This document shows, one piece after another, positions 458-20,000 of a stretch of DNA of 20,000 nt. Position 1 is the first letter of the stretch, and the number at the start of each line of letters is the position of its first letter. The DNA comes from an uncultured virus (IMG/VR IMGVR_UViG_3300009008_000030) (Duplodnaviria; Heunggongvirae; Uroviricota; Caudoviricetes). The notes under the pieces were generated by a model. It was not told the DNA's origin and ran no database searches. It saw only the letters and a program-made list of their open reading frames with translations. A program made the position numbers and the translations under genes. The stretch is from IMG/VR virus record IMGVR_UViG_3300009008_000030; one strand, written 5' to 3'.

Positions 458-1162
458 TTAGAGACCTGCCAGGAAGAACACTACGTTGACCCCGATGTTG
501 GAGGACACGGTGCCTGCGAGGGTACGAAGGGGCTGACCTGCCACGGCGTTGACCACGAAGGTGGTAAAGGCCACACCGCCGCTCACGTTGTCAAAGGAGG
601 TGAAGGTCAAGACACAGTTGGCCTCACAGACCATCTGCGCGGCCCCGTCAGGAACGGGAGTATTGGCCGCAGCCACCAGGGCGGTGATGGGCGAGCGCAG
701 CAAGCCAGCGTCGGGCTGGGCGGGGAGTGCATCGACCCACTGAATCCGCAGCGGGAAGTTCATGTCCGTACCGATGACGGTGGACTTGCTCTCCTGCACG
801 ATCTTAGCGTTCTGATACTGGCCCAAGGCCAAGGTCACAGGAGTTCCCGGTCCTGCTACACAACGCCGGAACGCTGCACCGCCGTTGGAGTCACCGACTG
901 TGATGTTGAGCACCGAAGATGTGGCCAAGGTTTGATCTACGAAGCCACGAGGCTGGTCAATCACCGCACCGAGATAGGGACGGTTGGTGAATGGGTTGAG
1001 GGGCGGTGCGCCGTCGAAGAGCCGGTTGAGCGTCGGCGCGGCGATGGAGAGACCACGCGGGTACTGTGACCAGCGTACTCCGTCGATGGTGGGGTCGTTA
1101 GGTCCGAAGTGGCCTTTGTAGACCCGCTCTCCCGGTCGGTGGATAAATGGATCTTGGCTCAT
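458..1162 (-). CDS. Beta-rich putative virion structural protein (234 aa)
   Basis: ORF 458..1246. Start moved to ATG 1162 (MSQDPFIHRPG), which forms an ATGA overlap with the upstream stop. The C-terminal half is V/T/A/G-rich with alternating hydrophobic residues. Lies in the structural operon. Confidence 0.6.
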   Translation of the reverse strand: MSQDPFIHRPGERVYKGHFGPNDPTIDGVRWSQYPRGLSIAAPTLNRLFDGAPPLNPFTNRPYLGAVIDQPRGFVDQTLATSSVLNITVGDSNGGAAFRRCVAGPGTPVTLALGQYQNAKIVQESKSTVIGTDMNFPLRIQWVDALPAQPDAGLLRSPITALVAAANTPVPDGAAQMVCEANCVLTFTSFDNVSGGVAFTTFVVNAVAGQPLRTLAGTVSSNIGVNVVFFLAGL

Positions 1163-1548
1163 GCGATAGCTCCCATGCCGCCCTCGCGGGAGGGGTCGAT
1201 GTATTCCACGCCAGGAACCCCCTCCACCTGCACGACAACGTGCCACAGACCCGGCTGGGCCTGATAGGCCACAGGACGGGCTGGTATGCCCGCAGAGATA
1301 AGCTCACTGGCTACAGCGGTGGTCAAGTCCTCGCAATCTCCGGTGCCCCTGGTCTTGACCTGTTCCCAGGTCAGCCATTCTTCATTGGGGTCGGCTTTGC
1401 GGTACTTGATGGTGCCGTCTTGCAGGCCCTTGAGGACAGGGAGCTTCCCTACCTCTCCGGCGTCTGCAATCTGCATGAGATCACTCTGCACCAACCCGGC
1501 CAGTACCCCAGCCGCGTGTCGCGGGTCGAGGTCCATGACAAGGCGCAT
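1159..1548 (-). CDS. Transglutaminase-like (Cys-His-Asp) protease/transglutaminase
   Basis: Motifs in the expected order: GTGDCEDL (Cys), 'AGIPARPV', WHVVV (His), YIDPS (Asp). GGAG RBS upstream. Confidence 0.85.
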   Translation of the reverse strand: MRLVMDLDPRHAAGVLAGLVQSDLMQIADAGEVGKLPVLKGLQDGTIKYRKADPNEEWLTWEQVKTRGTGDCEDLTTAVASELISAGIPARPVAYQAQPGLWHVVVQVEGVPGVEYIDPSREGGMGAIA

Positions 1549-2353: not shown

Positions 2354-2755
2354 CTAGTTCTTGAGAATAAAAATTGCTGTGGCGTTGAGTTGTACGTCAA
2401 GCGCCTGATTCACGGTGCCGTCAGACAAGTTACGGAAGCTACAGCTATTGACACTGCCTGTAGCGTTGGATTCTGTCGTCCAGCTACACGCCTGTCCCAC
2501 TGCGCCGTTGGCGTGGAAGCCTCCGGGACCGGGAACCCCGAGGGCAGAGGCGATCACGATGGTGTTTGCGTAACTCAAGTTGGTCAGGCCGTTGATGATG
2601 CCGTCAGCGCCAGCACCCTCTCCAACGGCTCCCTGAGTCACCAACTCAAGGTCACCTGCGTTTGTGTCCCACTGCGCCGTGGCAAGGGACAAGAGCCCAC
2701 CCCCTACAAGGGGAACCTGGGCGAGAATCGAGCCTGAATCGAAGTTAGTTGGCAT
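2354..2755 (-). CDS. Small beta-rich putative structural protein, paralogue 1
   Basis: 133 aa, TAGGAGA RBS, motif SILAQVPLVGGGLL. Confidence 0.7.
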   Translation of the reverse strand: MPTNFDSGSILAQVPLVGGGLLSLATAQWDTNAGDLELVTQGAVGEGAGADGIINGLTNLSYANTIVIASALGVPGPGGFHANGAVGQACSWTTESNATGSVNSCSFRNLSDGTVNQALDVQLNATAIFILKN

Positions 2756-2820: not shown

Positions 2821-4377
2821 TTACATGTTCTGCTTCAAGAAAGAAGCCGGGACGAGACCCTGCGGGCTGCTCATGCCGCCATAGGGGGCCTGGGCGCTGC
2901 TGGGCTGGACACCGAACACGTCGTCCACGATGCGGTCCACGAGGAGGTTGCAGTACGCAATATCCACGTTACCTGCGAGACCCGGCACTCCCGTAGTACC
3001 GATCAGGCCGCCGAAAGTGACCTGACAAGTGTTCGTCGCGGAGAGCAGAGGGTAAAATCTCAGGCCACACATCGAGTGCATACCACCACCACGACCGGAC
3101 TCGTCACCGATGTAGTTAATGGCCGGGATCGCACCCTGCTGCGGAAAGAGGCTAGCTCCACCGCGAACTTGCAGATCTTCAACCGTAGGTACGTCAGTCA
3201 CGTTCGCCTTGAGGGGAGTGGCAATCTCAAAGCCCACAATCTGCATTTCGGCCCACGCGATCTGCTCGCTCTGGAGGACGATACCTCCCGCAGCGGCCAG
3301 AGCCGGAGTGAGTCGGAACGACGAGGTATTCACATCGTTCGTCACGTCAGCAGTGAGGACACGCATCGGGATGCGCTGGATGGTGCCGGAGATCGGTGCG
3401 CCCTGTGGGAACACATATCCACGACCCTGGCCACCTCCCAGCGACCCAAGATTGAGGCGCTGCTGCCAGTTGTTGATCTTGCCATAGGTCGAGTCCTCAA
3501 TGGTCTCGATCACGGCAGACACATACAGAGTGCTGTCGCCAGCCGGGAACACATCCGTCGAAGCGACGGCGTTCGCGGTGATGGTCACCTCCAACACGTC
3601 GGGAGACTGAACGACCGGGTTGTAGCGCAGACCGACAAGGTGACGGTCTCCCATGCGGAAAGACTCAACACCAAGCTGACCATCACCGATGATCAGGTTG
3701 GGTCCACCACCAACGTGGAGGGCCGAGACCCGAATCGCATCCCGGTTGCCTGCCGCTGTACTCATGCGCTCGATAAGCAGACCGCGAAGGCGGTAGGTGA
3801 GCCAGGGAGTATTGGGCGTCTGCATCGTGAGGGTACGAGTACCTGGGCCAACACCCGCAGCTACGAAGGTGTAGGGGTCACCAATCACGCCTGCTACCGG
3901 AGTAGACATGGCAGTGGTTGTGAAGGGCAGACGCATGTACATGCCTGCGCCTGGGGGGGCCTGGATCAAGCCACCAGCTTGAGAGTAACCTCCCTTGCCG
4001 AAGGTTCCACCCTGGCCTTGCCAACCGGGTCCGTTCTGAGCGATGCGGGGCGCGGGTGCCTGAAATGCAGGCGGGACGTTTCGATTGATGGCCACGGTAT
4101 TAACCTCCTGTAGCTTTTTTCTGAGCCTAATGAGTTCGTTGCAGCAGGCCGCATTGACTTGCTGATCTTTCTTGGTGCCAATGCGAGCATTGACCTTGGC
4201 ACGGAGATTGTTGACAGCCTGCGCTGCATGGGCGTCTGCGGCGGCCAAAGCGGCTCCCGCAGTTGCTTGATCTCCATTCGCCAAAGCCTGCTTAGCTTGC
4301 TCGACTGCGACGAAAACTTCTGGGTGCTGTGCCCGTGCCTTGGCAGCGCCCGCTTTCTTGATTCTGTTGGAGGCCAT
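2821..4377 (-). CDS. Candidate major capsid protein with two tandem beta-sandwich (jelly-roll-like) domains and an N-terminal helical extension
   Basis: 518 aa. Internal duplication of aa ~123-299 and ~314-489 is visible by eye (RLPF/RIPM; LHVGGGPNL/LQVRGGASL; GLRYNPVV/GLRFYPLL; IETIEDSTYG/VDRIVDDVFG). Near the head of the operon and followed by a hairpin. The ORF is solid; the function is inferred. Confidence 0.6.
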   Translation of the reverse strand: MASNRIKKAGAAKARAQHPEVFVAVEQAKQALANGDQATAGAALAAADAHAAQAVNNLRAKVNARIGTKKDQQVNAACCNELIRLRKKLQEVNTVAINRNVPPAFQAPAPRIAQNGPGWQGQGGTFGKGGYSQAGGLIQAPPGAGMYMRLPFTTTAMSTPVAGVIGDPYTFVAAGVGPGTRTLTMQTPNTPWLTYRLRGLLIERMSTAAGNRDAIRVSALHVGGGPNLIIGDGQLGVESFRMGDRHLVGLRYNPVVQSPDVLEVTITANAVASTDVFPAGDSTLYVSAVIETIEDSTYGKINNWQQRLNLGSLGGGQGRGYVFPQGAPISGTIQRIPMRVLTADVTNDVNTSSFRLTPALAAAGGIVLQSEQIAWAEMQIVGFEIATPLKANVTDVPTVEDLQVRGGASLFPQQGAIPAINYIGDESGRGGGMHSMCGLRFYPLLSATNTCQVTFGGLIGTTGVPGLAGNVDIAYCNLLVDRIVDDVFGVQPSSAQAPYGGMSSPQGLVPASFLKQNM

Positions 4378-4380
4378 TGG

Positions 4381-4839
4381 TTAGACCGCCACCACTTCTT
4401 CGATAACAGCAGCGGGAGCCGCAACAGCCGCCGCAGCCTCACCCTCGGGGAGAGGCAACTGCGGCACTGCGATGCCAAAGAGCTTGCCGTCCTCGCGCCA
4501 GCGGATGCCCTCGGTGCTGACCAGCGACATGAGAGCAGAAGCTCCCAGGACACTCATCGTGCCCGCGATCATGTTGTTCTCCTGGGCGATGCCGTAGGCG
4601 GCTGCGCCAAAGGAAATACCCGCGATCCAAACACGGGCATCGCCCCACAGGGGAATCTCACCGTCTGCGTCACGCATCCAGCCGTAACGGTAGCCTTCTT
4701 CGGGAGTTGCATAGAAAGTCATGGCAGACGCGCCCAAGAGGGCACCTACACCCGCGAGGCCACCTGTCAGGAAGGTGCCGGGTCCGATTTCGGTGTCTCC
4801 GTAGCCCCAAGCGGCTTGACCATAAGATGTGTGATACAT
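4381..4839 (-). CDS. Membrane protein with about 3 hydrophobic segments (putative virion membrane protein)
   Basis: 152 aa, GGAG RBS. Gly/Ala-rich hydrophobic stretches FLTGGLAGVGALLGASAM, VWIAGISFGAAAYGIA, MIAGTMSVLGASALMSLV. Confidence 0.7.
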   Translation of the reverse strand: MYHTSYGQAAWGYGDTEIGPGTFLTGGLAGVGALLGASAMTFYATPEEGYRYGWMRDADGEIPLWGDARVWIAGISFGAAAYGIAQENNMIAGTMSVLGASALMSLVSTEGIRWREDGKLFGIAVPQLPLPEGEAAAAVAAPAAVIEEVVAV

Positions 4840-5127
4840 GGACTGGTTTCTCCAAGTTGGTTCAGGCGACCCGGCCTGTCATCCAGCCGGAGCGGTCGGA
4901 CGTAGAGTATCGAGGTCTGATCTCCAACGAAAGCTGGAAAGATCAAAAACATCAACTTTTTTTACATGCGTCCCGTACTGTCAAACCGACAGGGTTCAAT
5001 GTGGTGCTGCTCGGGAGCGCAGTCATACAAAGGGGGCATGTATGTCATTCGGAATGAGGCATGTCCTACCGTATTCATGTAGGACAAGGTTGCATGACAC
5101 CTGTCCATATCGGTATCTTCCGATCTC
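4840..5127. promoter_or_regulatory. Divergent intergenic control region with inverted repeats
   Basis: Lower-GC gap between divergent operons. Perfect inverted repeat TGTCCTAC (5062-5069) / GTAGGACA (5079-5086), plus TCATT-CGG-AATGA just upstream. Confidence 0.5.
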
Positions 5128-6219
5128 ATGTGCGCCGATACCAACAAACTTCGTAGGCGGTTCTGCTCGGCCTGCGCTGCCGTAGTCCGTAGCGGATTGG
5201 CGGCCTGCCCCTCGTGTGGCAACACCGCCATGACCACGCGCTGGGTGCGCCCAACCCGGCAATCCCGTGCGGCCTCTGTAACGCCCGCATTTCCCTTCCA
5301 CGGGGTCCAGTGGCCCGAGGGGGTGACCGTCGCTCTGTCAGCGTCTTTCGGTGTAGGAAAATCCTCATCTGCTGCACTGCTCGGCAATCCCGGCTCAGAT
5401 GGTAGTCCTCCCATGCTGAAAAACTGGATCACAACAGAACAAGACCCCACTCCGGTCCAGGCGATGTTCAAGCGGCTCAAGGTGCCGTGCCCGCAGATAT
5501 GGGCGGCTGACCCTCTCGACCCTGTGGGCTCGGTCAAGCGAGCGATTCGTACTCAGGTAACGGGGGCCGGGGCCTTGACCGTTCTGGACTCCACTACCCC
5601 TCTCGGCATCGACGGTGCGGTGGAGACAATGAACTTCATTGTGCAGGACTGTCTCAACACAGGGCGACGAGCCATGATGATCTCGCAGCAGAACAAGCAG
5701 AAGGAAATCCTCGGCAAGATCGCTCTGGCCTTCATCCCTGACATTGTGATTGAGATTGACGTTGACCAGTTTGGGCGGCGGCGTCTGCGCGTCTCTAAGA
5801 ACCGCCACGGGCCTCCCAGCACTACCTACTTCCAGTTTGGAGAAGAAGGCAAAATCTTGCAGCCCGACTTCACCACCGTCGCTCATAGCGTCGAAGGGGC
5901 AGTCATGGACATGCAACTCATCCCCTACGGCCTCCATATCAGGGGCGGCAAGTGGGACGGCTTGCTGAGCGCCCTGGACACCCACAGGCTCCTTCCTGAC
6001 CTGCCAGGGGTAGCCTCAGCCGCTATCAAGACGGGGGCCACCGCCTGCGGCTTCCTAGCCCCTCCTGATGAGCCCGCTCGCAAAGCTCTCGCAGAATCCC
6101 ACGGCTTGCGCTGGCTCGATCTTGAAGAAGGAGTAGACCTCCTAGCAGATGCACGGCGGCGAGGGCGACAGCCCGCTGCTCCCCCTGAACTCGACCCCCA
6201 TGAGGATCTTGCACTATGA
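5128..6219 (+). CDS. RadA/Sms-like RecA-superfamily ATPase with N-terminal C4 zinc finger
   Basis: CSAC-x10-CPSCG zinc finger, Walker A ASFGVGKSS, WITTEQ (cf. RadA YVSGEE), Walker B LTVLDS, SQQNK (cf. GHVTK) and LRVSKNRHGP (cf. the RadA KNRFG motif). No Lon-like C-terminal domain recognised. Confidence 0.8.
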   Translation: MCADTNKLRRRFCSACAAVVRSGLAACPSCGNTAMTTRWVRPTRQSRAASVTPAFPFHGVQWPEGVTVALSASFGVGKSSSAALLGNPGSDGSPPMLKNWITTEQDPTPVQAMFKRLKVPCPQIWAADPLDPVGSVKRAIRTQVTGAGALTVLDSTTPLGIDGAVETMNFIVQDCLNTGRRAMMISQQNKQKEILGKIALAFIPDIVIEIDVDQFGRRRLRVSKNRHGPPSTTYFQFGEEGKILQPDFTTVAHSVEGAVMDMQLIPYGLHIRGGKWDGLLSALDTHRLLPDLPGVASAAIKTGATACGFLAPPDEPARKALAESHGLRWLDLEEGVDLLADARRRGRQPAAPPELDPHEDLAL

Positions 6220-8533: not shown

Positions 8534-8892
8534 AGTTCGTATCCTGCTTCTGAGAGCTTCTGCAAGGCATCCTCGGCCCCATAGCCCACCAGGGGTCTCC
8601 ATCCCCTTTGCTCCAGGGCGCTGAGCCACTCTCTCTGGGCCTCTGAGACGCTAGAGGGCCTAGACCCTTCCCTTTTCATTTCCAGGGCCACCCCGGCGCT
8701 CTGAGGCGCTTGTGGAGGGGGGTCAAAGATGAGCAGGTCAGGCACTCCGGCCTGTACACCTGAGCGTTTCAAGAGCGCCCCCTCTTTTCGATCTCGACGC
8801 CCCCCATTCGGCACCGCTGCAAACAGCACCCCGGCGGCTCGCAGCTTACCCACTACGATCATCTGCTCGCTCAACTCGCTCGGGGAACCCAC
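8530..8892 (-). CDS. VRR-NUC domain (PD-(D/E)xK) nuclease
   Basis: AVPNGGRR, GVQAGVPDLLI, VALEMKR and SEAQREWLSALEQRGW form the typical phage VRR-NUC motif series. Confidence 0.9.
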   Translation of the reverse strand: MGSPSELSEQMIVVGKLRAAGVLFAAVPNGGRRDRKEGALLKRSGVQAGVPDLLIFDPPPQAPQSAGVALEMKREGSRPSSVSEAQREWLSALEQRGWRPLVGYGAEDALQKLSEAGYEL

Positions 8893-8960
8893 TGAGGTGG
8901 TCTACCTCGACAAGATCAGGTCTGTCAAGTCCCTAAAATCAGGAGATAAGTGCTGTTTTG

Positions 8961-9214
8961 GTGTAGTTAGAGTGTAGTTAGTGAATCTAGGTAAATACCC
9001 TAAATTACTATAGAAATGTAGTTTAGTGTAGTTAGTGTAGTTAAGTCTGGTAACTCCTACTAGATTTACTCTTGACATACCTTGGTTATTCCCATGACAT
9101 TCCCTTGACATGCGTTTTGTATTAGTGGAGGTATTGGCGACAAACTACACTAACTACACTAGATTATTTTTTCTGAGTGATTTCAACCACTTGGTAGTGT
9201 AGTTTAGTGTAGTT
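8961..9214. repeat. AT-rich region with direct and inverted GTGTAGTT repeats; candidate replication origin
   Basis: GTGTAGTT at 8961, 8972, 9026, 9035, 9197 and 9207. Its reverse complement AACTACAC at 9143 and 9152. One near copy ATGTAGTT at 9016. TGACAT occurs three times within 9072-9111. Clearly more AT-rich than the rest of the window. Confidence 0.75.
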
Positions 9215-9267
9215 ACGGGGAAAGCTACCAATGGCTAGTACAAGATTCGCTGCATGGGGTAAAAGAG

Positions 9268-9456
9268 GTGTCTGAGTTTGGCAGGTGCAGGATGCGGCGT
9301 AGCTTCAAGATGGTGACGAGGCGAAAGGGGTACGGGAAAGAGGGCCGAGTTGCGTCTTGTCCTCCCCCTCCCAACACCTTGGCCATGACCCCCAGGAAGG
9401 CGGCGATGGAGGCACCTCAGATCGTGCAGTACCCCAAAGAGGGCAAGAAGCTGTGA
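9268..9456 (+). CDS. Small basic hypothetical protein
   Basis: 62 aa. Its TGA overlaps the GTG of the next gene (GTGA at 9453-9456). Start codon uncertain. Confidence 0.45.
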   Translation: MSEFGRCRMRRSFKMVTRRKGYGKEGRVASCPPPPNTLAMTPRKAAMEAPQIVQYPKEGKKL

Positions 9457-13281: not shown

Positions 13282-14391
13282 TCATTTCACCTTTCGCACG
13301 AGGCGCAAGAGGGGTTCGTCAGTCACCACTCCTGGGCCAATGGCTTTGTACCATGTTGCGGCTGAGATCGAAGGGTGTCTTGTGTGAAGAAGATCAGCCA
13401 GATGCCGCCCCGCTCGCTTGGGCTGAGTCGCCACCAGCCTCCCAAGCTCAGGAATAGAGAGTCCCGCAGCAGGAGCGAGCTTATTTCGCACCACCTTGAC
13501 ATACTTAGGGTACGTCCCGTGATGACTCATACTCCCCTTGTGAGCTACAGCTTGCGCTACCGCTTCTGTGATTCCTTCGGTAATCCATGAAGCTAGGTCA
13601 CGGTCCACCACTCCTGCGGCATGGACAAGTTCATGGAGCAGGGTCCACTCCTGATTCTGGAGCAGGTAGATCACGTTGTCCTCGCCGTGGAAGCCAGCGG
13701 TCTGCTTAATGTCTTGGTCTTTCCAGCCGTGGCGTTGCATCACCTGAGCCAGATGTCCCTCGTTCACCACCTTGCAGTCTTTGTAGCTCGGGGCCTTACC
13801 CAACATCTGCCGCACGGCGCTAGCCAGCTTCTTGGTGTCGGGGCACGGCTTGTCGGCAGGATTGCGTAGACCCGCCACCGTGGTCTCGACCGGGGAGCGG
13901 CCTGGGTCATGCAGGACCAGCCCATGCGGGGTGCGCCCCAGGTTCTCAGGGCGCAGGTCAGACGGCCTTGCCCCTACGCGCTCCAGCGCCAGGACGGCCT
14001 GACCCACCTGCCTGAGAGGCCCGTAGAGGCCCCTAGAGCGCATCCTACGGCCTTTGAGCCATGACGGGCGGTGCAGATGCAGCCTGCCCTTCGTAGAGAG
14101 CCTCCCGGCGCTCTGGAGGGCTGCGATGCTCATGGGGTCTAGGCCGTGCAGTGACCCCAAGGGCTTCACGTCCTCGCGCACCACGACGGCAGCGCGGTGT
14201 CCGAGGCGAAGATCGTAGATTGCCGGGAGCCCGAGGGGCAGGCGACCCCGCCGTGCCAGGGAGGCAGCGGCGAGCCACGATTGGATCTCTACCGGGTCAT
14301 AGGTGACCTTGTAGACGACCCCTGGTGGTCCTTGAACGACCCCGCCGTTGTTGCCAGAGCCAATGACGCTCCACTGGCTCTTTCTAGCCAC
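13282..14391 (-). CDS. Fusion of a protein-kinase-like domain and a zincin (HExxH...E) metallopeptidase domain
   Basis: N-terminal: IGSGNNGGV (Gly loop), VVYKVT, SDLRPENLG (catalytic loop), LVLHDPG (DFG equivalent). C-terminal: TLLHELVHAAG and WITEGITEAVA. GGAG RBS before the GTG. Confidence 0.75.
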   Translation of the reverse strand: MARKSQWSVIGSGNNGGVVQGPPGVVYKVTYDPVEIQSWLAAASLARRGRLPLGLPAIYDLRLGHRAAVVVREDVKPLGSLHGLDPMSIAALQSAGRLSTKGRLHLHRPSWLKGRRMRSRGLYGPLRQVGQAVLALERVGARPSDLRPENLGRTPHGLVLHDPGRSPVETTVAGLRNPADKPCPDTKKLASAVRQMLGKAPSYKDCKVVNEGHLAQVMQRHGWKDQDIKQTAGFHGEDNVIYLLQNQEWTLLHELVHAAGVVDRDLASWITEGITEAVAQAVAHKGSMSHHGTYPKYVKVVRNKLAPAAGLSIPELGRLVATQPKRAGRHLADLLHTRHPSISAATWYKAIGPGVVTDEPLLRLVRKVK

Positions 14392-14873: not shown

Positions 14874-16484
14874 CTATCTAGTTAGGAAACTCAAGGTAGC
14901 AGCAGCAGCCAAGAGACCCCCTCCTACCATAAGGGGGGAATAATTGGCCTTGACCGCGAAGGTGTCGTGGGGGTCGGTGGACTCGTTGCGGAGTTCGTCT
15001 CCCATCTCTTCCCCGAGGCGGTGAGCAGAGTTCCATCGAACCATCTTGCGTTCCATCGTGTCGCTTAGCTGATGGGTGGGCTTTGTTGACGGCCCTACGG
15101 TACGCGGGTCTACCCCTTGCAGTTGTTGGCGGTAAGCGGGGCTAGTTGCTACATCTTTGATCCACTCAGTCATCTCTTCGGGAGGGGCGTTCCCTCCTGA
15201 CATGGGTGTGTCGGCCAGGGCATCTTGAATACTGGTGGCTCCATAAGCGTCACCGGCATAGACCATGCTCGGATCTACCCCGGCTGCGATCAAGAGCTTG
15301 TTCTGCTTGTCTCGCATCAAGATGAAGAGAAAGCGAGGGGTAAAGACACTCCTACGCACCACGTTGTCAGGGAAAAGAGCACGAGCTTCTGCTTCGCTGT
15401 AGCCGAATACCCAAGGTGGAACCTCTGCCACACTTCCCCCGTAGGGAGAGGAGGTAAGGATCGCATCTCCGGTTCTCAGTCCTGTCTCGTATATTGACAT
15501 GATGGTGTTCCACCAGTGTCTCTGCATAGGAACAGGGGGGAGGCCATCACTGTCAGGGAAGATCAATCGGATGTTGTTTGGATCTTGTAGCCTCGTATCG
15601 GCAATACTGATGTGCTTGCCGGGATTCATCGCGTTGTAGAGCGTGACGACGGGAGCGAGGGTCATCAAGTAGGTCCACGCTTCTCTCAGCCACCCAATCT
15701 CCCAGGCTCGGCCACGGCCCGCTAGGTGGGGAGTAGACCCCGTATTCATGCGACCAGCACTCCAACCTTCTTTGAGTCCCTTGCGGAGCCACAGCTTGTA
15801 GCCTTGGGCTTTGGCCGGGTCTTTGAAGGCGCACGAAGAGGTGGGACACCCGCAGGCCCCATCTGCACACGCATGACCACCTGGGTTCTGTCCAGAGGGT
15901 ACGTTGTCGGCAGGGCGACCCCACCAGTTGGTGGGAGCGGGGTGACCAGATCCACTACCGCAACCTGCGCCCCGACAGTTGTTTCCGTGCTTACCGCAGG
16001 ACAGGCGATTCACCTGGGCGAACCTCGGCCCCCCTGTATACACACGAGGACACTGGTAGCGATTCGGCTTCTTAACGGTGCGAGCCCCCGGCCCCGTTTG
16101 CCACTGCTTGCGGTTGCTCTTTTGGCGAAGGTAGCTCTTGTAGGTATTCGCCTTCTGTGTGATGGCGTTCACTAAGGTGATTCTCTCGTCCCAATCGTCT
16201 TGGTAATCTGCGACGTTAGTGAAGATCTCGCTCTCGGTCATGCGTCCGATGTAGACGACCTGACCAATCCCCACGATGATGCCTGCTACGGCCTGGAGAA
16301 TCCCCCCTACCGCTCCAGCGCCACCGCCACCGCCACCACCGCCGCCACCACCGCCTTCTTGGCCATAGGAAGCGGGCGAGTAGGAGGCGTGTGCCTGGGG
16401 AGCGAACACATGAAGCTCGCCCGTTACGGGGTCATCGTAGTAATGAGGTCGAAGAAAAGCGGGATCTTGAAGTACCGAACGCAT
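14874..16484 (-). CDS. Large putative virion membrane protein with poly-Gly tract, Cys-rich segment and two hydrophobic segments
   Basis: 536 aa, TAAGGA RBS. G12 tract followed by AGAVGGILQAVAGIIVGIGQVVYIG, 8 clustered Cys, and C-terminal LMVGGGLLAAAATLSFL. Confidence 0.75.
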   Translation of the reverse strand: MRSVLQDPAFLRPHYYDDPVTGELHVFAPQAHASYSPASYGQEGGGGGGGGGGGGAGAVGGILQAVAGIIVGIGQVVYIGRMTESEIFTNVADYQDDWDERITLVNAITQKANTYKSYLRQKSNRKQWQTGPGARTVKKPNRYQCPRVYTGGPRFAQVNRLSCGKHGNNCRGAGCGSGSGHPAPTNWWGRPADNVPSGQNPGGHACADGACGCPTSSCAFKDPAKAQGYKLWLRKGLKEGWSAGRMNTGSTPHLAGRGRAWEIGWLREAWTYLMTLAPVVTLYNAMNPGKHISIADTRLQDPNNIRLIFPDSDGLPPVPMQRHWWNTIMSIYETGLRTGDAILTSSPYGGSVAEVPPWVFGYSEAEARALFPDNVVRRSVFTPRFLFILMRDKQNKLLIAAGVDPSMVYAGDAYGATSIQDALADTPMSGGNAPPEEMTEWIKDVATSPAYRQQLQGVDPRTVGPSTKPTHQLSDTMERKMVRWNSAHRLGEEMGDELRNESTDPHDTFAVKANYSPLMVGGGLLAAAATLSFLTR

Positions 16485-17091: not shown

Positions 17092-17700
17092 CTAGGGTTT
17101 TCCTGCACCGAAATTAGTCGCCCCGCCTTGACCCGTGGCTGGACGAGGGGGAGGGTCTGCGGCGGCCTCAGCGGGGCTCTCAGGCAGCGCAGAGGATTTC
17201 CGGTGCCAGAGCCTCACGGCCCGCTTCTGGCCGTCAGGAAGATCGACCATGAGCCAGTGGCGCTTGAACCATGCGTGGGGAGCCCACCAGGGGCTTGTGA
17301 CGGCGAACATTTCACCGCCGGGAGCCAAGACCCGCTCGGCCTCGGTGAGCAGGGCTAGTGGATCTTCTACCTGCTCCAAGGCGTGTAGGAGCAGGACCGA
17401 CCCAAAGGTGTTGTCCTCGGCTGGGATCTTCCCATCCACGGCGACCACATAGCCGTTCGCTTCCGCGTCAGGGTCTAGGTCCACGTTCAGGTGCCCCCAC
17501 AAGGGAGAGGCCCCGAGAGCGGTCCTCAGCGACGGACTGCCGAAGCCGTGGCCGATGTTGAGGACAGGCTTATCGAGCTTTGCAGCGGCCACATGCGCTT
17601 TGCGGGCGATGAGCCCTGGACGCACCACGGTGTCACCGAACCACGCAACGCCCGCATAGACAGTCAGGAAACGAAAGAGCTTGCCGATGCGGAAGGCCAC
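17092..17700 (-). CDS. Class I SAM-dependent methyltransferase-like protein with N-terminal hydrophobic segment
   Basis: VLNIGHG (motif I), LNVDLD, IPAEDNTFGSVLLLHALEQV, EAERVLAPGG. Start moved from 17868 to GTG 17700, which removes the overlap with the upstream gene. Confidence 0.8.
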   Translation of the reverse strand: MAFRIGKLFRFLTVYAGVAWFGDTVVRPGLIARKAHVAAAKLDKPVLNIGHGFGSPSLRTALGASPLWGHLNVDLDPDAEANGYVVAVDGKIPAEDNTFGSVLLLHALEQVEDPLALLTEAERVLAPGGEMFAVTSPWWAPHAWFKRHWLMVDLPDGQKRAVRLWHRKSSALPESPAEAAADPPPRPATGQGGATNFGAGKP

Positions 17701-17731
17701 GGCGGGAGAGTAGCTCGGAGTGTGACAGGAG

Positions 17732-18241
17732 TCACGCTTTCCAGGGCAAGCTCTTGTGGCGCAGGGGCTTACCGTCGCCTTGGGGGGCCGATAGGAGGCG
17801 TTGCTTGGCACCTGGGTAGGCGAAGGCGGTGAGGCTCCAGGGCTCGACCCGCGACACGAACAGGTCACGGCCCGCTACGCGGTTCAGTTGGGCCTTGGCC
17901 GCCTCGATGTTATCGACGTACTCCAGGGTGCAGATAACGCAGACCACGGCGCTGTTAGAGGGTTGCTGCCGGAGGTCAGTAGCGAGGTCGCCTTGCATCT
18001 GTTCTGGACAGCTAGGACAACCGGCGAGATCAATACACAGGTCGCCGCAGCCATAGGTCGGTAAGAGCCGGGTGACGAAGCCTGCTCTCGGTGCGCCCAC
18101 CACCACCAGCGGCTTACCTGTCTCCTGAGACCTTCGATGCGCTGCCTTGTAGACCCGCTGGCGCTCCCAACGCCTCGGGCCGAAGGCCAGGGCAGCTTCG
18201 GCCCCGCACAGGACCAATATGGCCTTGACCGCGCCGTGCAT
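17732..18241 (-). CDS. Divergent methyltransferase-like protein, paralogous to the downstream gene
   Basis: KPLVVVGAP, YGCGDLCIDLAGCPSC, NSAVVCVICTLEYVD, QLNRVAG. Collinear with the motifs of 17092..17700. Confidence 0.6.
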   Translation of the reverse strand: MHGAVKAILVLCGAEAALAFGPRRWERQRVYKAAHRRSQETGKPLVVVGAPRAGFVTRLLPTYGCGDLCIDLAGCPSCPEQMQGDLATDLRQQPSNSAVVCVICTLEYVDNIEAAKAQLNRVAGRDLFVSRVEPWSLTAFAYPGAKQRLLSAPQGDGKPLRHKSLPWKA

Positions 18242-18928
18242 CTAGCTGGCCTCTTCGGCTGCTTTCTTAGCGGCGCGTTTCCGGCGTTGCGCCTCTTTGC
18301 CGCCTTTGCGTCCGATGTAGCTGGAGTAGCGGCTGATCTTACCCGTATCAGCCGTCCCAGGACGCGGGGAGCAGATAGCCCAAGCGGGAGTACCTGTGGG
18401 GGTGTAGGTGCGATCTCCACCGCGCACTCTGCCCGGTTTACCCTTCGCCAGCGTGGCTTTAAGATCTTCTCCCACACGTTGGTAGGATTTCGTTTTGTGC
18501 TTGTCGAAAGGGGCGGGCCACTCGCCAGGGAGCAACTCGCCGTCGCATACTCGCAGGTTGTTGATAATGTCGTTGCCGAGGCGCGTAAGCTCACCTCTCA
18601 TATCATCTGCCTGTTTTCCGGTAACAAGATGCCCTCGCAGGGGCAAGCTGTTACCGAGGGCATTGAGTTCGTGAAAGCGGGTGATATAGGCTTTGGTCTC
18701 TTGAGAAACGTACTCAGGGGGTCGCCCCCGCTTTCCGGTGCGCGGGGGGAGCGGCTCGTTTGTGAGCAGATCTTGTCCGGCGCTTCGACTAGCTCGCTCG
18801 CGGGCGGCTTCCAGTTGCTCGGGGGTGAGGGTGCTGGCCTCTACCCGGCGTCCCATGCGCCAGGGTTTTCGGTAGCTTGCGACTACGGCTACTCCGGCAA
18901 GAGCGGCGATCCAATGCCAAGTTTTCAT
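18242..18928 (-). CDS. Basic hypothetical protein with N-terminal membrane anchor
   Basis: 228 aa with leader MKTWHWIAALAGVAVVASYRKPWRMGRR. Its stop abuts the next ATG. Confidence 0.7.
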   Translation of the reverse strand: MKTWHWIAALAGVAVVASYRKPWRMGRRVEASTLTPEQLEAARERASRSAGQDLLTNEPLPPRTGKRGRPPEYVSQETKAYITRFHELNALGNSLPLRGHLVTGKQADDMRGELTRLGNDIINNLRVCDGELLPGEWPAPFDKHKTKSYQRVGEDLKATLAKGKPGRVRGGDRTYTPTGTPAWAICSPRPGTADTGKISRYSSYIGRKGGKEAQRRKRAAKKAAEEAS

Positions 18929-18961
18929 GGAGCAAGGTCTACCACGACCGAGGGGAGAGAG

Positions 18962-19507
18962 CTAGCCACGAACGGCCACCCGAACCTCTTTTACGCCTCC
19001 AGGCTTCACCACAACCTCGCGCTCAGGGATGGTGGGATCAATACGCCACCCTTCTTCGTCAAGAAGGTCATAGCGAATCCTGCGGTAGACGGTCTCATTC
19101 CAGTCCACTGCACTCGGCGTAGGAAGCACTCCGGCCAGGAGGGTGGTCCCGAAGTTAGCCGCAGAGCGGCGGTCTGGACTCCATGATGACCCGCCCCCAT
19201 TTTCCAGGCGAACCGGGTCGGCTGCATAAAGATCTAGCCCTCTCCACACTTGCAAGGGAAAGGACAACTCTTGTAGCTGTTGGATGATCTTCCTTGAAAG
19301 CTGCAAGGCTTCTTCTCGTGTATAGCTTGCTGAAAACCTTGACCAGAGCGAATCGAGATCAGACCAATAGATGGGTGTTCCGTGCAAGGACACTAGCTGG
19401 CGGCCTTGTCGATCTCGCTGCCACACAGCGCGGCGACCGGAGCGGCGGCCACGACCCACCGCGTACCCCGCGACCGCTCCACCAGCCAGCCAGGGGAGGA
19501 TGGTCAT
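18962..19507 (-). CDS. Shared N-terminal leader fused to an ADP-ribosyltransferase-like (R-S-E) domain
   Basis: Start moved from 19549 to ATG 19507 to match the repeated leader (no clear RBS there). C-terminal LQVWRG...GSSWSPDRRSAANF...EREVVV. Confidence 0.6.
   Translation of the reverse strand: MTILPWLAGGAVAGYAVGRGRRSGRRAVWQRDRQGRQLVSLHGTPIYWSDLDSLWSRFSASYTREEALQLSRKIIQQLQELSFPLQVWRGLDLYAADPVRLENGGGSSWSPDRRSAANFGTTLLAGVLPTPSAVDWNETVYRRIRYDLLDEEGWRIDPTIPEREVVVKPGGVKEVRVAVRG
19431..19506. repeat. 76-bp direct repeat, copy 1 (encodes the shared leader)
   Basis: Matches 19846-19921 at 74 of 76 positions. Confidence 0.95.
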
Positions 19508-19538
19508 AACATCGGACGACGAATTAAGGAAGGGATGC

Positions 19539-19922
19539 TCATCGGTCAATGTAGTGAAAAGGGTCGATGGGAGGGGAGAGCCACCCTTCTTCGGGAGCGC
19601 GTTCGTAGATCTCTTTCACTACCCTACCAAACTCATCATCGGTCGCATAGAGCGTGAACTGACGACGGATGCCCCCGCCTTCGTATTCTTCCTGAAAGTC
19701 GGAGTAGATCACAAAGTAGGGTGCTTCTCCCCATCGCTTCACCCCCAACACCTTGCGAATGGCTCGCCCCACCAGCCCTCGTGCCGCCCGAATGTCACCT
19801 GGGCCACCCGTTAAGATAAAGACCCCCTCACGGCGCTTATCCGCACGGCGACCGGAGCGACGGCCACGACCCATCGCGTACCCCGCGACCGCTCCACCAG
19901 CCAGCCAGGGGAGGATGGTCAC
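19539..19922 (-). CDS. Shared N-terminal leader fused to an unknown ~100-aa domain
   Basis: 127 aa, GGAGG RBS, GTGA overlap with the upstream stop. Begins MTILPWLAGGAVAGYAMGRGRRSGRRA. Confidence 0.75.
   Translation of the reverse strand: MTILPWLAGGAVAGYAMGRGRRSGRRADKRREGVFILTGGPGDIRAARGLVGRAIRKVLGVKRWGEAPYFVIYSDFQEEYEGGGIRRQFTLYATDDEFGRVVKEIYERAPEEGWLSPPIDPFHYIDR
19846..19921. repeat. 76-bp direct repeat, copy 2
   Basis: Matches 19431-19506 at 74 of 76 positions, offset 415 bp. Confidence 0.95.
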
Positions 19923-20000
19923 GCTTCCTCCCGTTCATCGTGCAGGGCCTCCACAGCCTCCTTCACGATTTCGTCAATGCGCTCCTGTTGGGTGCGCTTC
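19919..20000 (-). CDS. 3' end of a gene entering from the right edge
   Basis: Frame reads ...KRTQQERIDEIVKEAVEALHDEREEA* with a TGA overlapping the GTG at 19922. Confidence 0.55.
   Translation of the reverse strand, partial: KRTQQERIDEIVKEAVEALHDEREEA

Follow-up and report, generated by a model that had tools for sequence, protein, structure and literature searches.

What would lead adjacent genes of one virus to begin alike and then have nothing further in common? The question is raised by a 20,000-nucleotide (nt) stretch from an uncultured virus of the Caudoviricetes (IMG/VR record IMGVR_UViG_3300009008_000030), referred to here as the window; it represents 20 kb out of a genome that measures 74 kb or more. 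Near its right end, two neighboring genes, here called A and B (Table 1), both begin with a copy of the top direct-repeat family of the window, which is 79 nt long and identical at 76 of 79 positions (96%). An uninterrupted 47 nt of the repeat (19460-19506, equal to 19875-19921 by reading) is free of mismatches, and all other repeat families in the window are at most 39 nt long with 64-82% identity. Each copy begins one base inside the start codon (ATG at 19507 for gene B, GTG at 19922 for gene A), runs into codon 27 and encodes the peptide MTILPWLAGGAVAGYA[V/M]GRGRRSGRRA, common to both genes; the translation of gene B starts MTILPWLAGGAVAGYAVGRGRRSGRRA and that of gene A starts MTILPWLAGGAVAGYAMGRGRRSGRRA. 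The sequences upstream of the two copies differ from each other, and alignment of the proteins reveals nothing in common past residue 27. We find that this leader is a genuine, selected and portable N-terminal module on polymorphic cargo, most of which, where it can be named, is enzymatic.

An earlier note on this DNA, made from its letters alone, had described a near-identical repeat (74/76) at the starts of two adjacent genes, with divergence directly after it. Our repeat is the same feature with slightly shifted borders, and the downstream parts could indeed not be aligned. The expectation that more copies lie beyond the right edge was also borne out. The last 26 codons at 19919-19999 read KRTQQERIDEIVKEAVEALHDEREEA followed by a stop, which matches the C-terminus of the leader protein P0005 (316 residues), and the TGA stop of this gene (19919-19921) overlaps the GTG start of gene A (GTGA). 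Moreover, a 976-nt contig from public run X3 (record 9) spans the P0005-type gene, with 804 other letters separating the sequence between 19919 and the window end from a leader copy; this leader maps onto that of gene B. The gaps between array genes within the window are 31-33 nt, and a promoter and terminator scan returned nothing exceeding shuffled sequences.

A portable leader on unrelated cargo

We searched for relatives of both genes among metagenome proteins. The gene A protein is metagenome protein P0003, found on 9 contigs, the longest of 74,264 nt. Other leader proteins also come from long contigs, P0043 and P0045 from one of 68,082 nt and P0049 from one of 67,827 nt. A search with the gene B protein, which is 99% identical to metagenome protein P0001, returned one near-identical protein and five others that match solely in the first 9-24% of the query, their remaining parts being unrelated. 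A profile built from 13 leaders (A5) then matched 51 proteins at E<=10, 47 of them at E<=1e-3, among 8000 scored candidates drawn from the longer metagenome proteins. These 51 proteins range from 90 to 573 residues and come from several sources (jgi, ena, lgn, tara, ncbi). There are thus far more than the two copies from which the earlier note had proposed a portable tag, and the cargo behind them is unrelated. The motif begins at residue 3-6 in all but one of the 53 leader proteins checked, the exception carrying the variant SSSLWLAGGA. The variant of the window, MTILPWLAGGAVAGYA, recurs in P0002, P0004, P0005 and P0006.

The leader comprises 22-27 residues with the consensus M-[S/T/N]-Y-L-P-W-L-A-G-G-A-A-L-G-[Y/L]-A-A-R-R-G-R-R-A. 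Pro5, Trp6, Gly10 and Gly14 are invariant in 17 leader sequences, and Gly20 and Arg22 are nearly so. It is built in two parts, a weakly hydrophobic GxxxG-type stretch of about 15 residues and an arginine collar that follows it. Matches of the leader region to Protein Data Bank (PDB) entries (a Peptidase C51 protein at E 0.087, and Shroom) were judged to be due to chance. The searchable literature contains no instance of 'LPWLAGG'.

Tandem arrangement of leader genes is found outside the window as well. Leader patterns scanned against JGI metagenome contigs gave 220 matches, three of which were confirmed as loci. Two of these, L001 and L002, contain two leader genes apiece, and the third, L003 (7,337 nt), contains six in tandem with overlapping stop and start codons. 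Searches of IMG/VR with the exact 39-nt leader core yielded no locus, those with the 181-residue gene B protein and a 536-residue window protein gave 82 and 6 pattern matches, none of them confirmed, and the window has no match among INPHARED phages by megablast.

To describe the cargo, we removed residues 1-26 from 52 leader proteins and grouped the remainders by BLASTP (E<=1e-5). This gave 37 components, namely 31 singletons, 5 pairs and one group of 11 that is linked through fusion proteins alone. Pfam matches above curated cut-offs identify GNAT acetyltransferases (P0028, P0029, P0031, P0048 and L003:2217-2864), a HAD phosphatase (HAD_SAK_1, P0044), a kinase (AAA_33 and Zeta_toxin, P0057), ParB_N (P0069) and YunG (P0064); below cut-off are ART-PolyVal in P0050 (22.1 versus 31.2 bits) and DUF5872 in P0049. 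Weak BLASTP links (E 1e-5 to 0.05) connect P0006, P0041, P0049, P0069 and P0071 with one another, and the first module of P0005 with GNAT-like modules. On reading the sequences, those five proteins and P0058, itself linked to P0049, appear to be ParB-like. Four cargo types (P0043, P0046, P0055 with its copy in P0061, and P0062) have a [Y]H-x-[TS] strand early in the module, and P0043 faintly matches RNA 2'-phosphotransferase (E 0.028); both are hints of domains of the ADP-ribosyltransferase (ART) superfamily. Several cargos (P0029, P0031, P0032, P0050, P0057, P0058, P0065 and P0069) have tails of arginine and lysine runs (...RRRR, ...RKKKR, ...KRRRG), and the C-terminus of P0063 is the collar motif itself (DRGRRG). 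These basic tails could bind nucleic acid or could be remnants of downstream leaders.

The cargos of the window itself have proved harder to name. That of gene A matches no family in Pfam, PHROGs or NCBIfam and gave no ESM Atlas lead. For gene B, the earlier note had proposed an ADP-ribosyltransferase, which we could not substantiate beyond a motif by eye, since no ART family is matched in Pfam (E<=10), PHROGs (E<=5) or NCBIfam (E<=0.1). The pattern consists of W88-R89-G90, S108-W-S110 and E162-R-E164, in the order R, S-x-S, E-x-E, and its R-to-S spacing of about 20 residues is presumably short for the R-S-E family (Alt/VIP2 type) of these enzymes. The gene B protein has no PDB sequence match and no tblastn match in phages at E<=5; with one homologue for alignment, a single-sequence AlphaFold2 model reached a mean predicted local distance difference test (pLDDT) score of 38.4 and was unusable. 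The ESM Atlas clusters nearest to its cargo are of unnamed viral proteins (0.94) and of EspN/DUF4765 (0.92), which we take as a lead only.

Selection on the peptide, cassette turnover and fusion at the collar

We compared codons over the 14 ungapped core codons of the leader. Between leaders of the same contig, 51% of the codons for identical residues differ (18 pairs, including the window pair), and between leaders of different contigs the value is 50% (48 pairs). Since the peptide is kept at about 50% synonymous codon difference, selection acts on the peptide. The peptide has thus been conserved through synonymous saturation, an argument that it is the peptide itself that has a function. The two leaders of the window differ at 0 of the 14 codons, and their near-identical DNA reflects a recent duplication, conversion or cassette insertion in the window lineage only. 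The proposal in the earlier note that the DNA repeat lets recombination swap or add cargo therefore holds only locally: such recombination may reshuffle cassettes in the window lineage but, judging by the codons, it cannot be what maintains the leader family.

Turnover of cassettes is visible in four public runs that contain parts of the region at 85-100% identity, three of them labeled marine or seawater metagenomes and the fourth bearing a coded label. These were compared with the region as Logan contigs rather than as reads. In all four runs other contigs join the leader to different flanks, and loose contig ends fall exactly at the leader borders (19427/19429 and 19506/19507). Depth in run X3 is 34 on the leader bin compared with 7.5. 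In a relative from run X5 (29 differences in 209 nt), a contig joins 18939 to 19507 such that gene B is missing from its start codon to 22 nt beyond its stop (18940-19506), with a mere 2 nt of common sequence at the joint. Gene B behaves as an indel cassette. Two further joints in X3 (19507 to 19857, and 20000 back to 19443) were discarded as leader copies mapping onto each other.

Modules are also fused and split at the collar of the leader. The clearest case is P0061 (406 residues), in which the leader is followed by a module of P0045/P0070 (27-188), the P0055 cargo (193-337) and the P0033 cargo (343-406); P0045, P0055 and P0033 also exist as stand-alone leader proteins with their cargo starting at residue 27. 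Similarly, P0058 combines a ParB-like module with the P0065 cargo, P0030 the cargo of the second L001 gene with that of P0053, and P0005 a GNAT-like module with the P0037 cargo, and P0070 is also a fusion of modules by BLASTP. At 5 of 8 mapped junctions the linker is the end of the leader minus its hydrophobic part (...SRGRRNIPF..., ...LRGRRAQNS..., ...SGRGRRATRR...). Counting from residue 31 to the end of the 52 proteins, we observed 10 internal GRR[ANG] motifs with 1.65 expected (standard deviation 1.32) and 8 internal RGRR motifs with 0.82 expected (standard deviation 0.91); with homologous proteins kept in, 0 of 2000 composition-preserving shuffles reached either count. The earlier note had suggested cleavage near GRR, and the recurrence of the motif lends indirect support to some event at this segment: the internal RGRR could be a processing site kept in polyproteins, or a favored fusion breakpoint or recombination scar. 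Fused and split forms at one motif offer a rare direct view of how multi-domain 'polyvalent' effectors can be assembled out of single-domain genes or taken apart into them.

What the leader may do

Together, these observations suggest to us that the leader is a portable address label on polymorphic effector enzymes that are gathered at one place, likely the assembling particle. We assign this reading a probability of roughly 0.45, and it draws on analogy with known systems. The partner of the helix would be a membrane, or those membrane proteins of the element in which similar Gly-rich helices occur, and the arginine collar and cargo would remain on the cytoplasmic side. Tagged proteins would then come together in one location, the assembling virus particle being the likeliest, such that a changeable set of effectors travels with the genome. 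The RGRR collar would serve as the joint for fusion and splitting of modules and may also be where processing occurs. We infer that the tag associates with a membrane, how the cargo is oriented, that virions are loaded with it and that the tag is cleaved; an anchor in the virion membrane, possibly with release by cleavage, had been the proposal of the earlier note. Virion loading is favored by analogy with polyvalent proteins and T4 internal proteins.

The charge layout of the tag bears on topology. Nothing charged precedes the approximately 15 apolar residues, which contain the packing motif G10-x-x-x-G14, and the arginine cluster comes after them; by the positive-inside rule, arginines after the helix place the cargo in the cytoplasm. 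Such placement fits the cargo, because GNAT, kinase and ART-type enzymes need acetyl-CoA, ATP or NAD. Given its strict conservation, the leader is more likely to be recognized by a partner than by lipid alone.

Several known systems resemble this one in part. The internal proteins IPI-III and Alt of phage T4 have nothing but a capsid targeting sequence (CTS) in common, a short conserved N-terminal peptide that, like our leader, is borne by diverse and fast-changing proteins (PMC3012670). The leader differs in being a Gly-rich hydrophobic helix with an arginine collar and in having modules that are also fused into multi-module proteins; moreover, no T4-type head, scaffold or prohead protease gene was recognized among the 29 window proteins with Pfam and PHROGs. 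A second precedent is the polyvalent proteins of phages and conjugative elements, effectors predicted to be packaged and injected with DNA, which according to Iyer et al. 2017 (PMC5512222) carry ART, GNAT, ParB-like nuclease and kinase domains, sit among late genes and may be peptidase-processed; T4 Alt is an R-S-E ADP-ribosyltransferase in the same source. Our cargo set is similar (GNAT, ParB-like and kinase, with ART-PolyVal weakly in P0050), as are the fusions of 2-4 disparate modules (P0061, P0049 and P0058, also P0070 and P0005) and the position beside late-type genes (PMC5512222). Specifically, the leader array heads a co-directional block of methyltransferases, membrane proteins and an HExxH protein, followed by an Amidase_2/PG_binding_1 endolysin and holin-like genes. 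In contrast to polyvalent proteins, the modules here are mostly separate genes with their own tag, genes A and B bearing one cargo each, and no cargo has a Pfam match to the zincin-like metallopeptidase domain. Nor is a common N-terminal tag described for polyvalent proteins in PMC5512222, where 'transmembrane' has 0 occurrences.

Among bacterial systems, prePAAR type VI secretion effectors carry N-terminal hydrophobic domains, implicated in membrane crossing, on polymorphic toxin-type cargo (PMC7773334). They differ in that the present element looks viral and its leader is far shorter, and in that immunity genes are absent here, as is any PAAR, Rhs or Eag chaperone context. Polymorphic toxin cassettes (orphan modules of contact-dependent inhibition (CDI) and Rhs systems) likewise combine a constant part with swappable variable parts in tandem. 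Here, however, the constant part is N-terminal and tiny, its DNA homology is not conserved outside the window lineage, and the L003 genes abut or overlap (ATGA/GTGA), leaving no room for interleaved immunity genes. The C-terminal sorting signals PEP-CTERM and GlyGly-CTERM, considered because of a similar three-part layout, were set aside, as they lie at the opposite end of the protein. Our search of the literature on N-terminal transmembrane phage ejection effectors turned up nothing relevant. We conclude that the leader works like an address tag, that it does not appear to belong to the T4 CTS family or the strict polyvalent class, and that it is not a member of the signal-peptide classes. 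One tag on many cargos is already known from T4; what is new is the hydrophobic kind of tag, the scale and the virus lineage. As an address label, if that is what it is, the leader would single out candidate host-manipulating proteins in 37 or more cargo groups, mostly of unknown fold, that no annotation pipeline would otherwise connect, and its 22-residue peptide would provide a simple handle on how such elements collect and deliver proteins.

A number of results weigh against the address label with virion loading. The leader is rare, a 32-residue query finding just 4 matches at E<=0.001 among 1.84 billion cluster representatives, and IMG/VR and GTDB gave no confirmed locus: a leader alignment (A2) gave 27 pattern matches in IMG/VR and a further query (A1) 39 in GTDB (one genome per species), 0 being confirmed in either. 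Its mean Kyte-Doolittle value over 17 residues is 1.41, compared with 1.9-2.05 for other helices of the window, and its sum on the Hessa biological scale is clearly positive, so that stable membrane insertion is doubtful. Three of the 8 mapped junctions (P0030, P0058 and P0070) are without the collar motif or have a degraded form, and we identified no RGRR-specific protease. About 25 cargo groups have no recognizable family, such that 'effector enzymes' is extrapolated from the nameable minority. Finally, none of the 29 window proteins matches a portal, terminase, scaffold, prohead protease, HK97-type or other known capsid in Pfam or PHROGs, and the one jelly-roll-type protein in the window, of 518 residues, has middling scores (Z 7.3-8.6) that non-viral beta-sandwiches equal.

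The alternative that survives best is a membrane tether inside the infected cell, which would keep the enzymes at the cytoplasmic membrane of the host, on its inner side (near envelope, transport or replication sites, for instance), without their ever being packaged. It would account for the lack of basic residues before the helix, the arginine cluster after it and the use of cytoplasmic cofactors by the cargo, and adjoining genes of methyltransferase type have unrelated N-terminal hydrophobic helices. However, a generic anchor needs no invariant Pro5, Trp6, Gly10 and Gly14 maintained across synonymous saturation, the hydrophobicity is marginal, and both in their domains and in lying beside late-type genes the tagged proteins match predicted injected effectors. 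We regard this tether as somewhat unlikely.

The address label itself can be extended to a bolder form, in which the tag marks enzymes for loading by an effector-delivery system, so far undescribed, of a marine virus lineage missed by the standard catalogs. Tagged enzymes would be inserted by the helix in a membrane or core inside the virion, to be freed in the next host when a viral protease clips at RGRR, and the whole would be a one-tag-per-module counterpart of polyvalent proteins, with fusion and fission interconverting the two. The lineage, without a relative in IMG/VR or INPHARED and with contigs of up to 74 kb, would have a jelly-roll-type structural protein and many Gly-zipper membrane proteins. 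As a whole, this proposal is quite unlikely.

A docking tag that acts without a membrane, its helix binding scaffold, capsid or portal and a maturation protease clipping RGRR, seems to us decidedly improbable. A short N-terminal peptide strictly conserved on unrelated cargo has a precedent in T4 (PMC3012670), the collar motif recurs at fused-module junctions, and the window holds a cysteine-protease-like gene and the HExxH protein (1159-1548 and 13282-14391). Against such docking, no scaffold, prohead protease or HK97-type capsid gene was recognized in the window. In addition, the leader is hydrophobic and Gly-rich, and the T4 tag is presumably neither. Cleavage of adenain type at L-A-G-G|A within the helix was considered and rejected as a motif coincidence, as no such protease was found.

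An export signal of Sec, Tat or signal-anchor-release (SAR) type, sending the cargo out of the cytoplasm, is very hard to credit. The Gly/Ala-rich, weakly hydrophobic stretch is reminiscent of the SAR domains of some endolysins, but 2-5 uncharged residues precede the core where a basic n-region would be expected, the twin arginines and the arginine cluster come after it, and the GNAT, kinase and ART-type cargo requires acetyl-CoA, ATP or NAD. Lastly, plain tandem duplication or an assembly artefact, which the near-identical window leaders and the Logan contigs that break inside the repeat might suggest, and which the earlier note had named as a possible refutation, has a close to negligible chance, given the unrelated cargos of genes A and B, 51 proteins from several independent sources, the ~50% synonymous difference in related contigs and the different flanks in 4 of 4 runs.

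Hydrophobic neighbors and the rest of the element

We examined the genes next to the array, of which the earlier note had credited one (gene C, starting MKTWHWIAALAGVAVVASYRKPWRMGRR) with an analogous leader. The layout stands, with a hydrophobic stretch and then GRR, but homology was not detected. A leader hidden Markov model (HMM) of 16 sequences, run against 428 stop-to-stop frames of the window and L001-L003, recovered only its 12 training leaders lying in those frames (next best E 0.27), and the gene C frame is absent from the best 40 (E up to 6.7). Genes D and E also have hydrophobic N-terminal stretches (Table 1). Gene E matches Methyltransf_11 (34.1 bits versus a cut-off of 21.2), its true start is probably near 17700, and a homologue lies upstream of the L003 leader array (L003:2-454, Methyltransf_11, 52.3 bits). 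That the non-homologous N-termini of genes C, D and E are laid out alike argues for a shared role in membrane association, the enzyme lying in the cytoplasm. Gly-rich hydrophobic helices also occur at one end of window proteins of 536, 186, 152 and 42 residues. Directly after the six-gene array of L003, positions 4930-5670 (+) encode a weakly GNAT-like protein (E 0.02) with a different Gly-rich N-terminal helix, MTDTVKWIGGGLGLVVGAAIAGLG; here cargo of the same type bears a hydrophobic N-terminus of another sort.

Table 1. Positions of the leader repeats, leader genes and other features discussed
Feature	Position	Strand	Description
DNA repeat copy 1 (gene B leader)	19428-19506		Reference copy, family D1
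DNA repeat copy 2 (gene A leader)	19843-19921		Family D1, 76/79 identical to copy 1
Leader gene A	19539-19922	-	127 residues, GTG start; leader is codons 1-27 (19842-19922)
Leader gene B	18962-19507	-	181 residues from ATG at 19507; leader is codons 1-27 (19427-19507)
3' end of further leader gene (316-residue P0005 type)	19919-20000	-	Leaves the window at the right edge
Gene C	18242-18928	-	228 residues; different hydrophobic stretch, then GRR
Gene D	17732-18241	-	169 residues; unrelated N-terminal hydrophobic helix (Kyte-Doolittle 1.92), then RRWERQR
Gene E	17092-17868	-	Class I methyltransferase; hydrophobic stretch before the catalytic domain
536-residue protein	14874-16484	-	13-glycine run; Gly-rich hydrophobic helix near residue 57, another C-terminal
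369-residue protein	13282-14391	-	HELVH (HExxH) motif, no family match
363-residue protein	5128-6219	+	N-terminal zinc ribbon (below Pfam cut-off), Walker A GVGKSS by eye
518-residue protein	2821-4377	-	19 metagenome homologues, 46-100% identity
Three Gly/Ala/Thr-rich proteins, 124-133 residues	1575-1949, 1959-2342, 2354-2755	-	No family match
129-residue protein	1159-1548	-	Transglut_core 23.1 bits versus cut-off 23, GDCEDLT motif
Leader genes of L003 (positions in that contig)	1316-1951, 1948-2220, 2217-2864, 2861-3532, 3517-4338, 4335-5021		

Among the other window genes is that of the 518-residue protein. In its model (pLDDT 67) a bundle of three helices forms the N-terminus, and a disordered linker and two beta-sandwich domains are also present. 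The first sandwich resembles single as well as double jelly-roll capsid proteins, with VIA Z scores of 8.6 against the satellite panicum mosaic virus coat protein and 7.3-7.4 against the first jelly roll of PBCV-1 Vp54, the SGIV capsid and an orf virus D13-type protein. Based on this model, it is possibly the capsid protein of an uncatalogued lineage. Its family alignment (A3) gave 13 matches in IMG/VR, 0 of them confirmed, and a single 26-residue match in GTDB (E 3e-4), in an alphaproteobacterial metagenome-assembled genome, was taken as chance. A complex prediction for the leader (A5) with this protein (A3) scored 0.00 in both runs, which, being without controls, carries no weight either way. 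The genes for the three Gly/Ala/Thr-rich proteins lie directly downstream of it and are apparent paralogues; their products may be minor structural proteins. The 129-residue protein, which has a putative transglutaminase fold and is cysteine-protease-like, lies among these putative structural genes and is a candidate processing enzyme.

Of the remaining proteins, that of 369 residues could be a metallopeptidase by its HELVH motif, and that of 363 residues is a putative ATPase. The 536-residue protein has no family match and no relative in phages (tblastn) or IMG/VR. Lastly, the sole long non-coding stretch of the window (8893-9356), which is lower in GC content, sits between a minus-strand gene ending at 8892 and a plus-strand gene starting at 9357. 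Within it, a sequence of 41 nt is repeated in inverted orientation (9002-9042 / 9143-9183) and AGTGTAGTTAGTG occurs in direct copies; the stretch may be an origin or control region.

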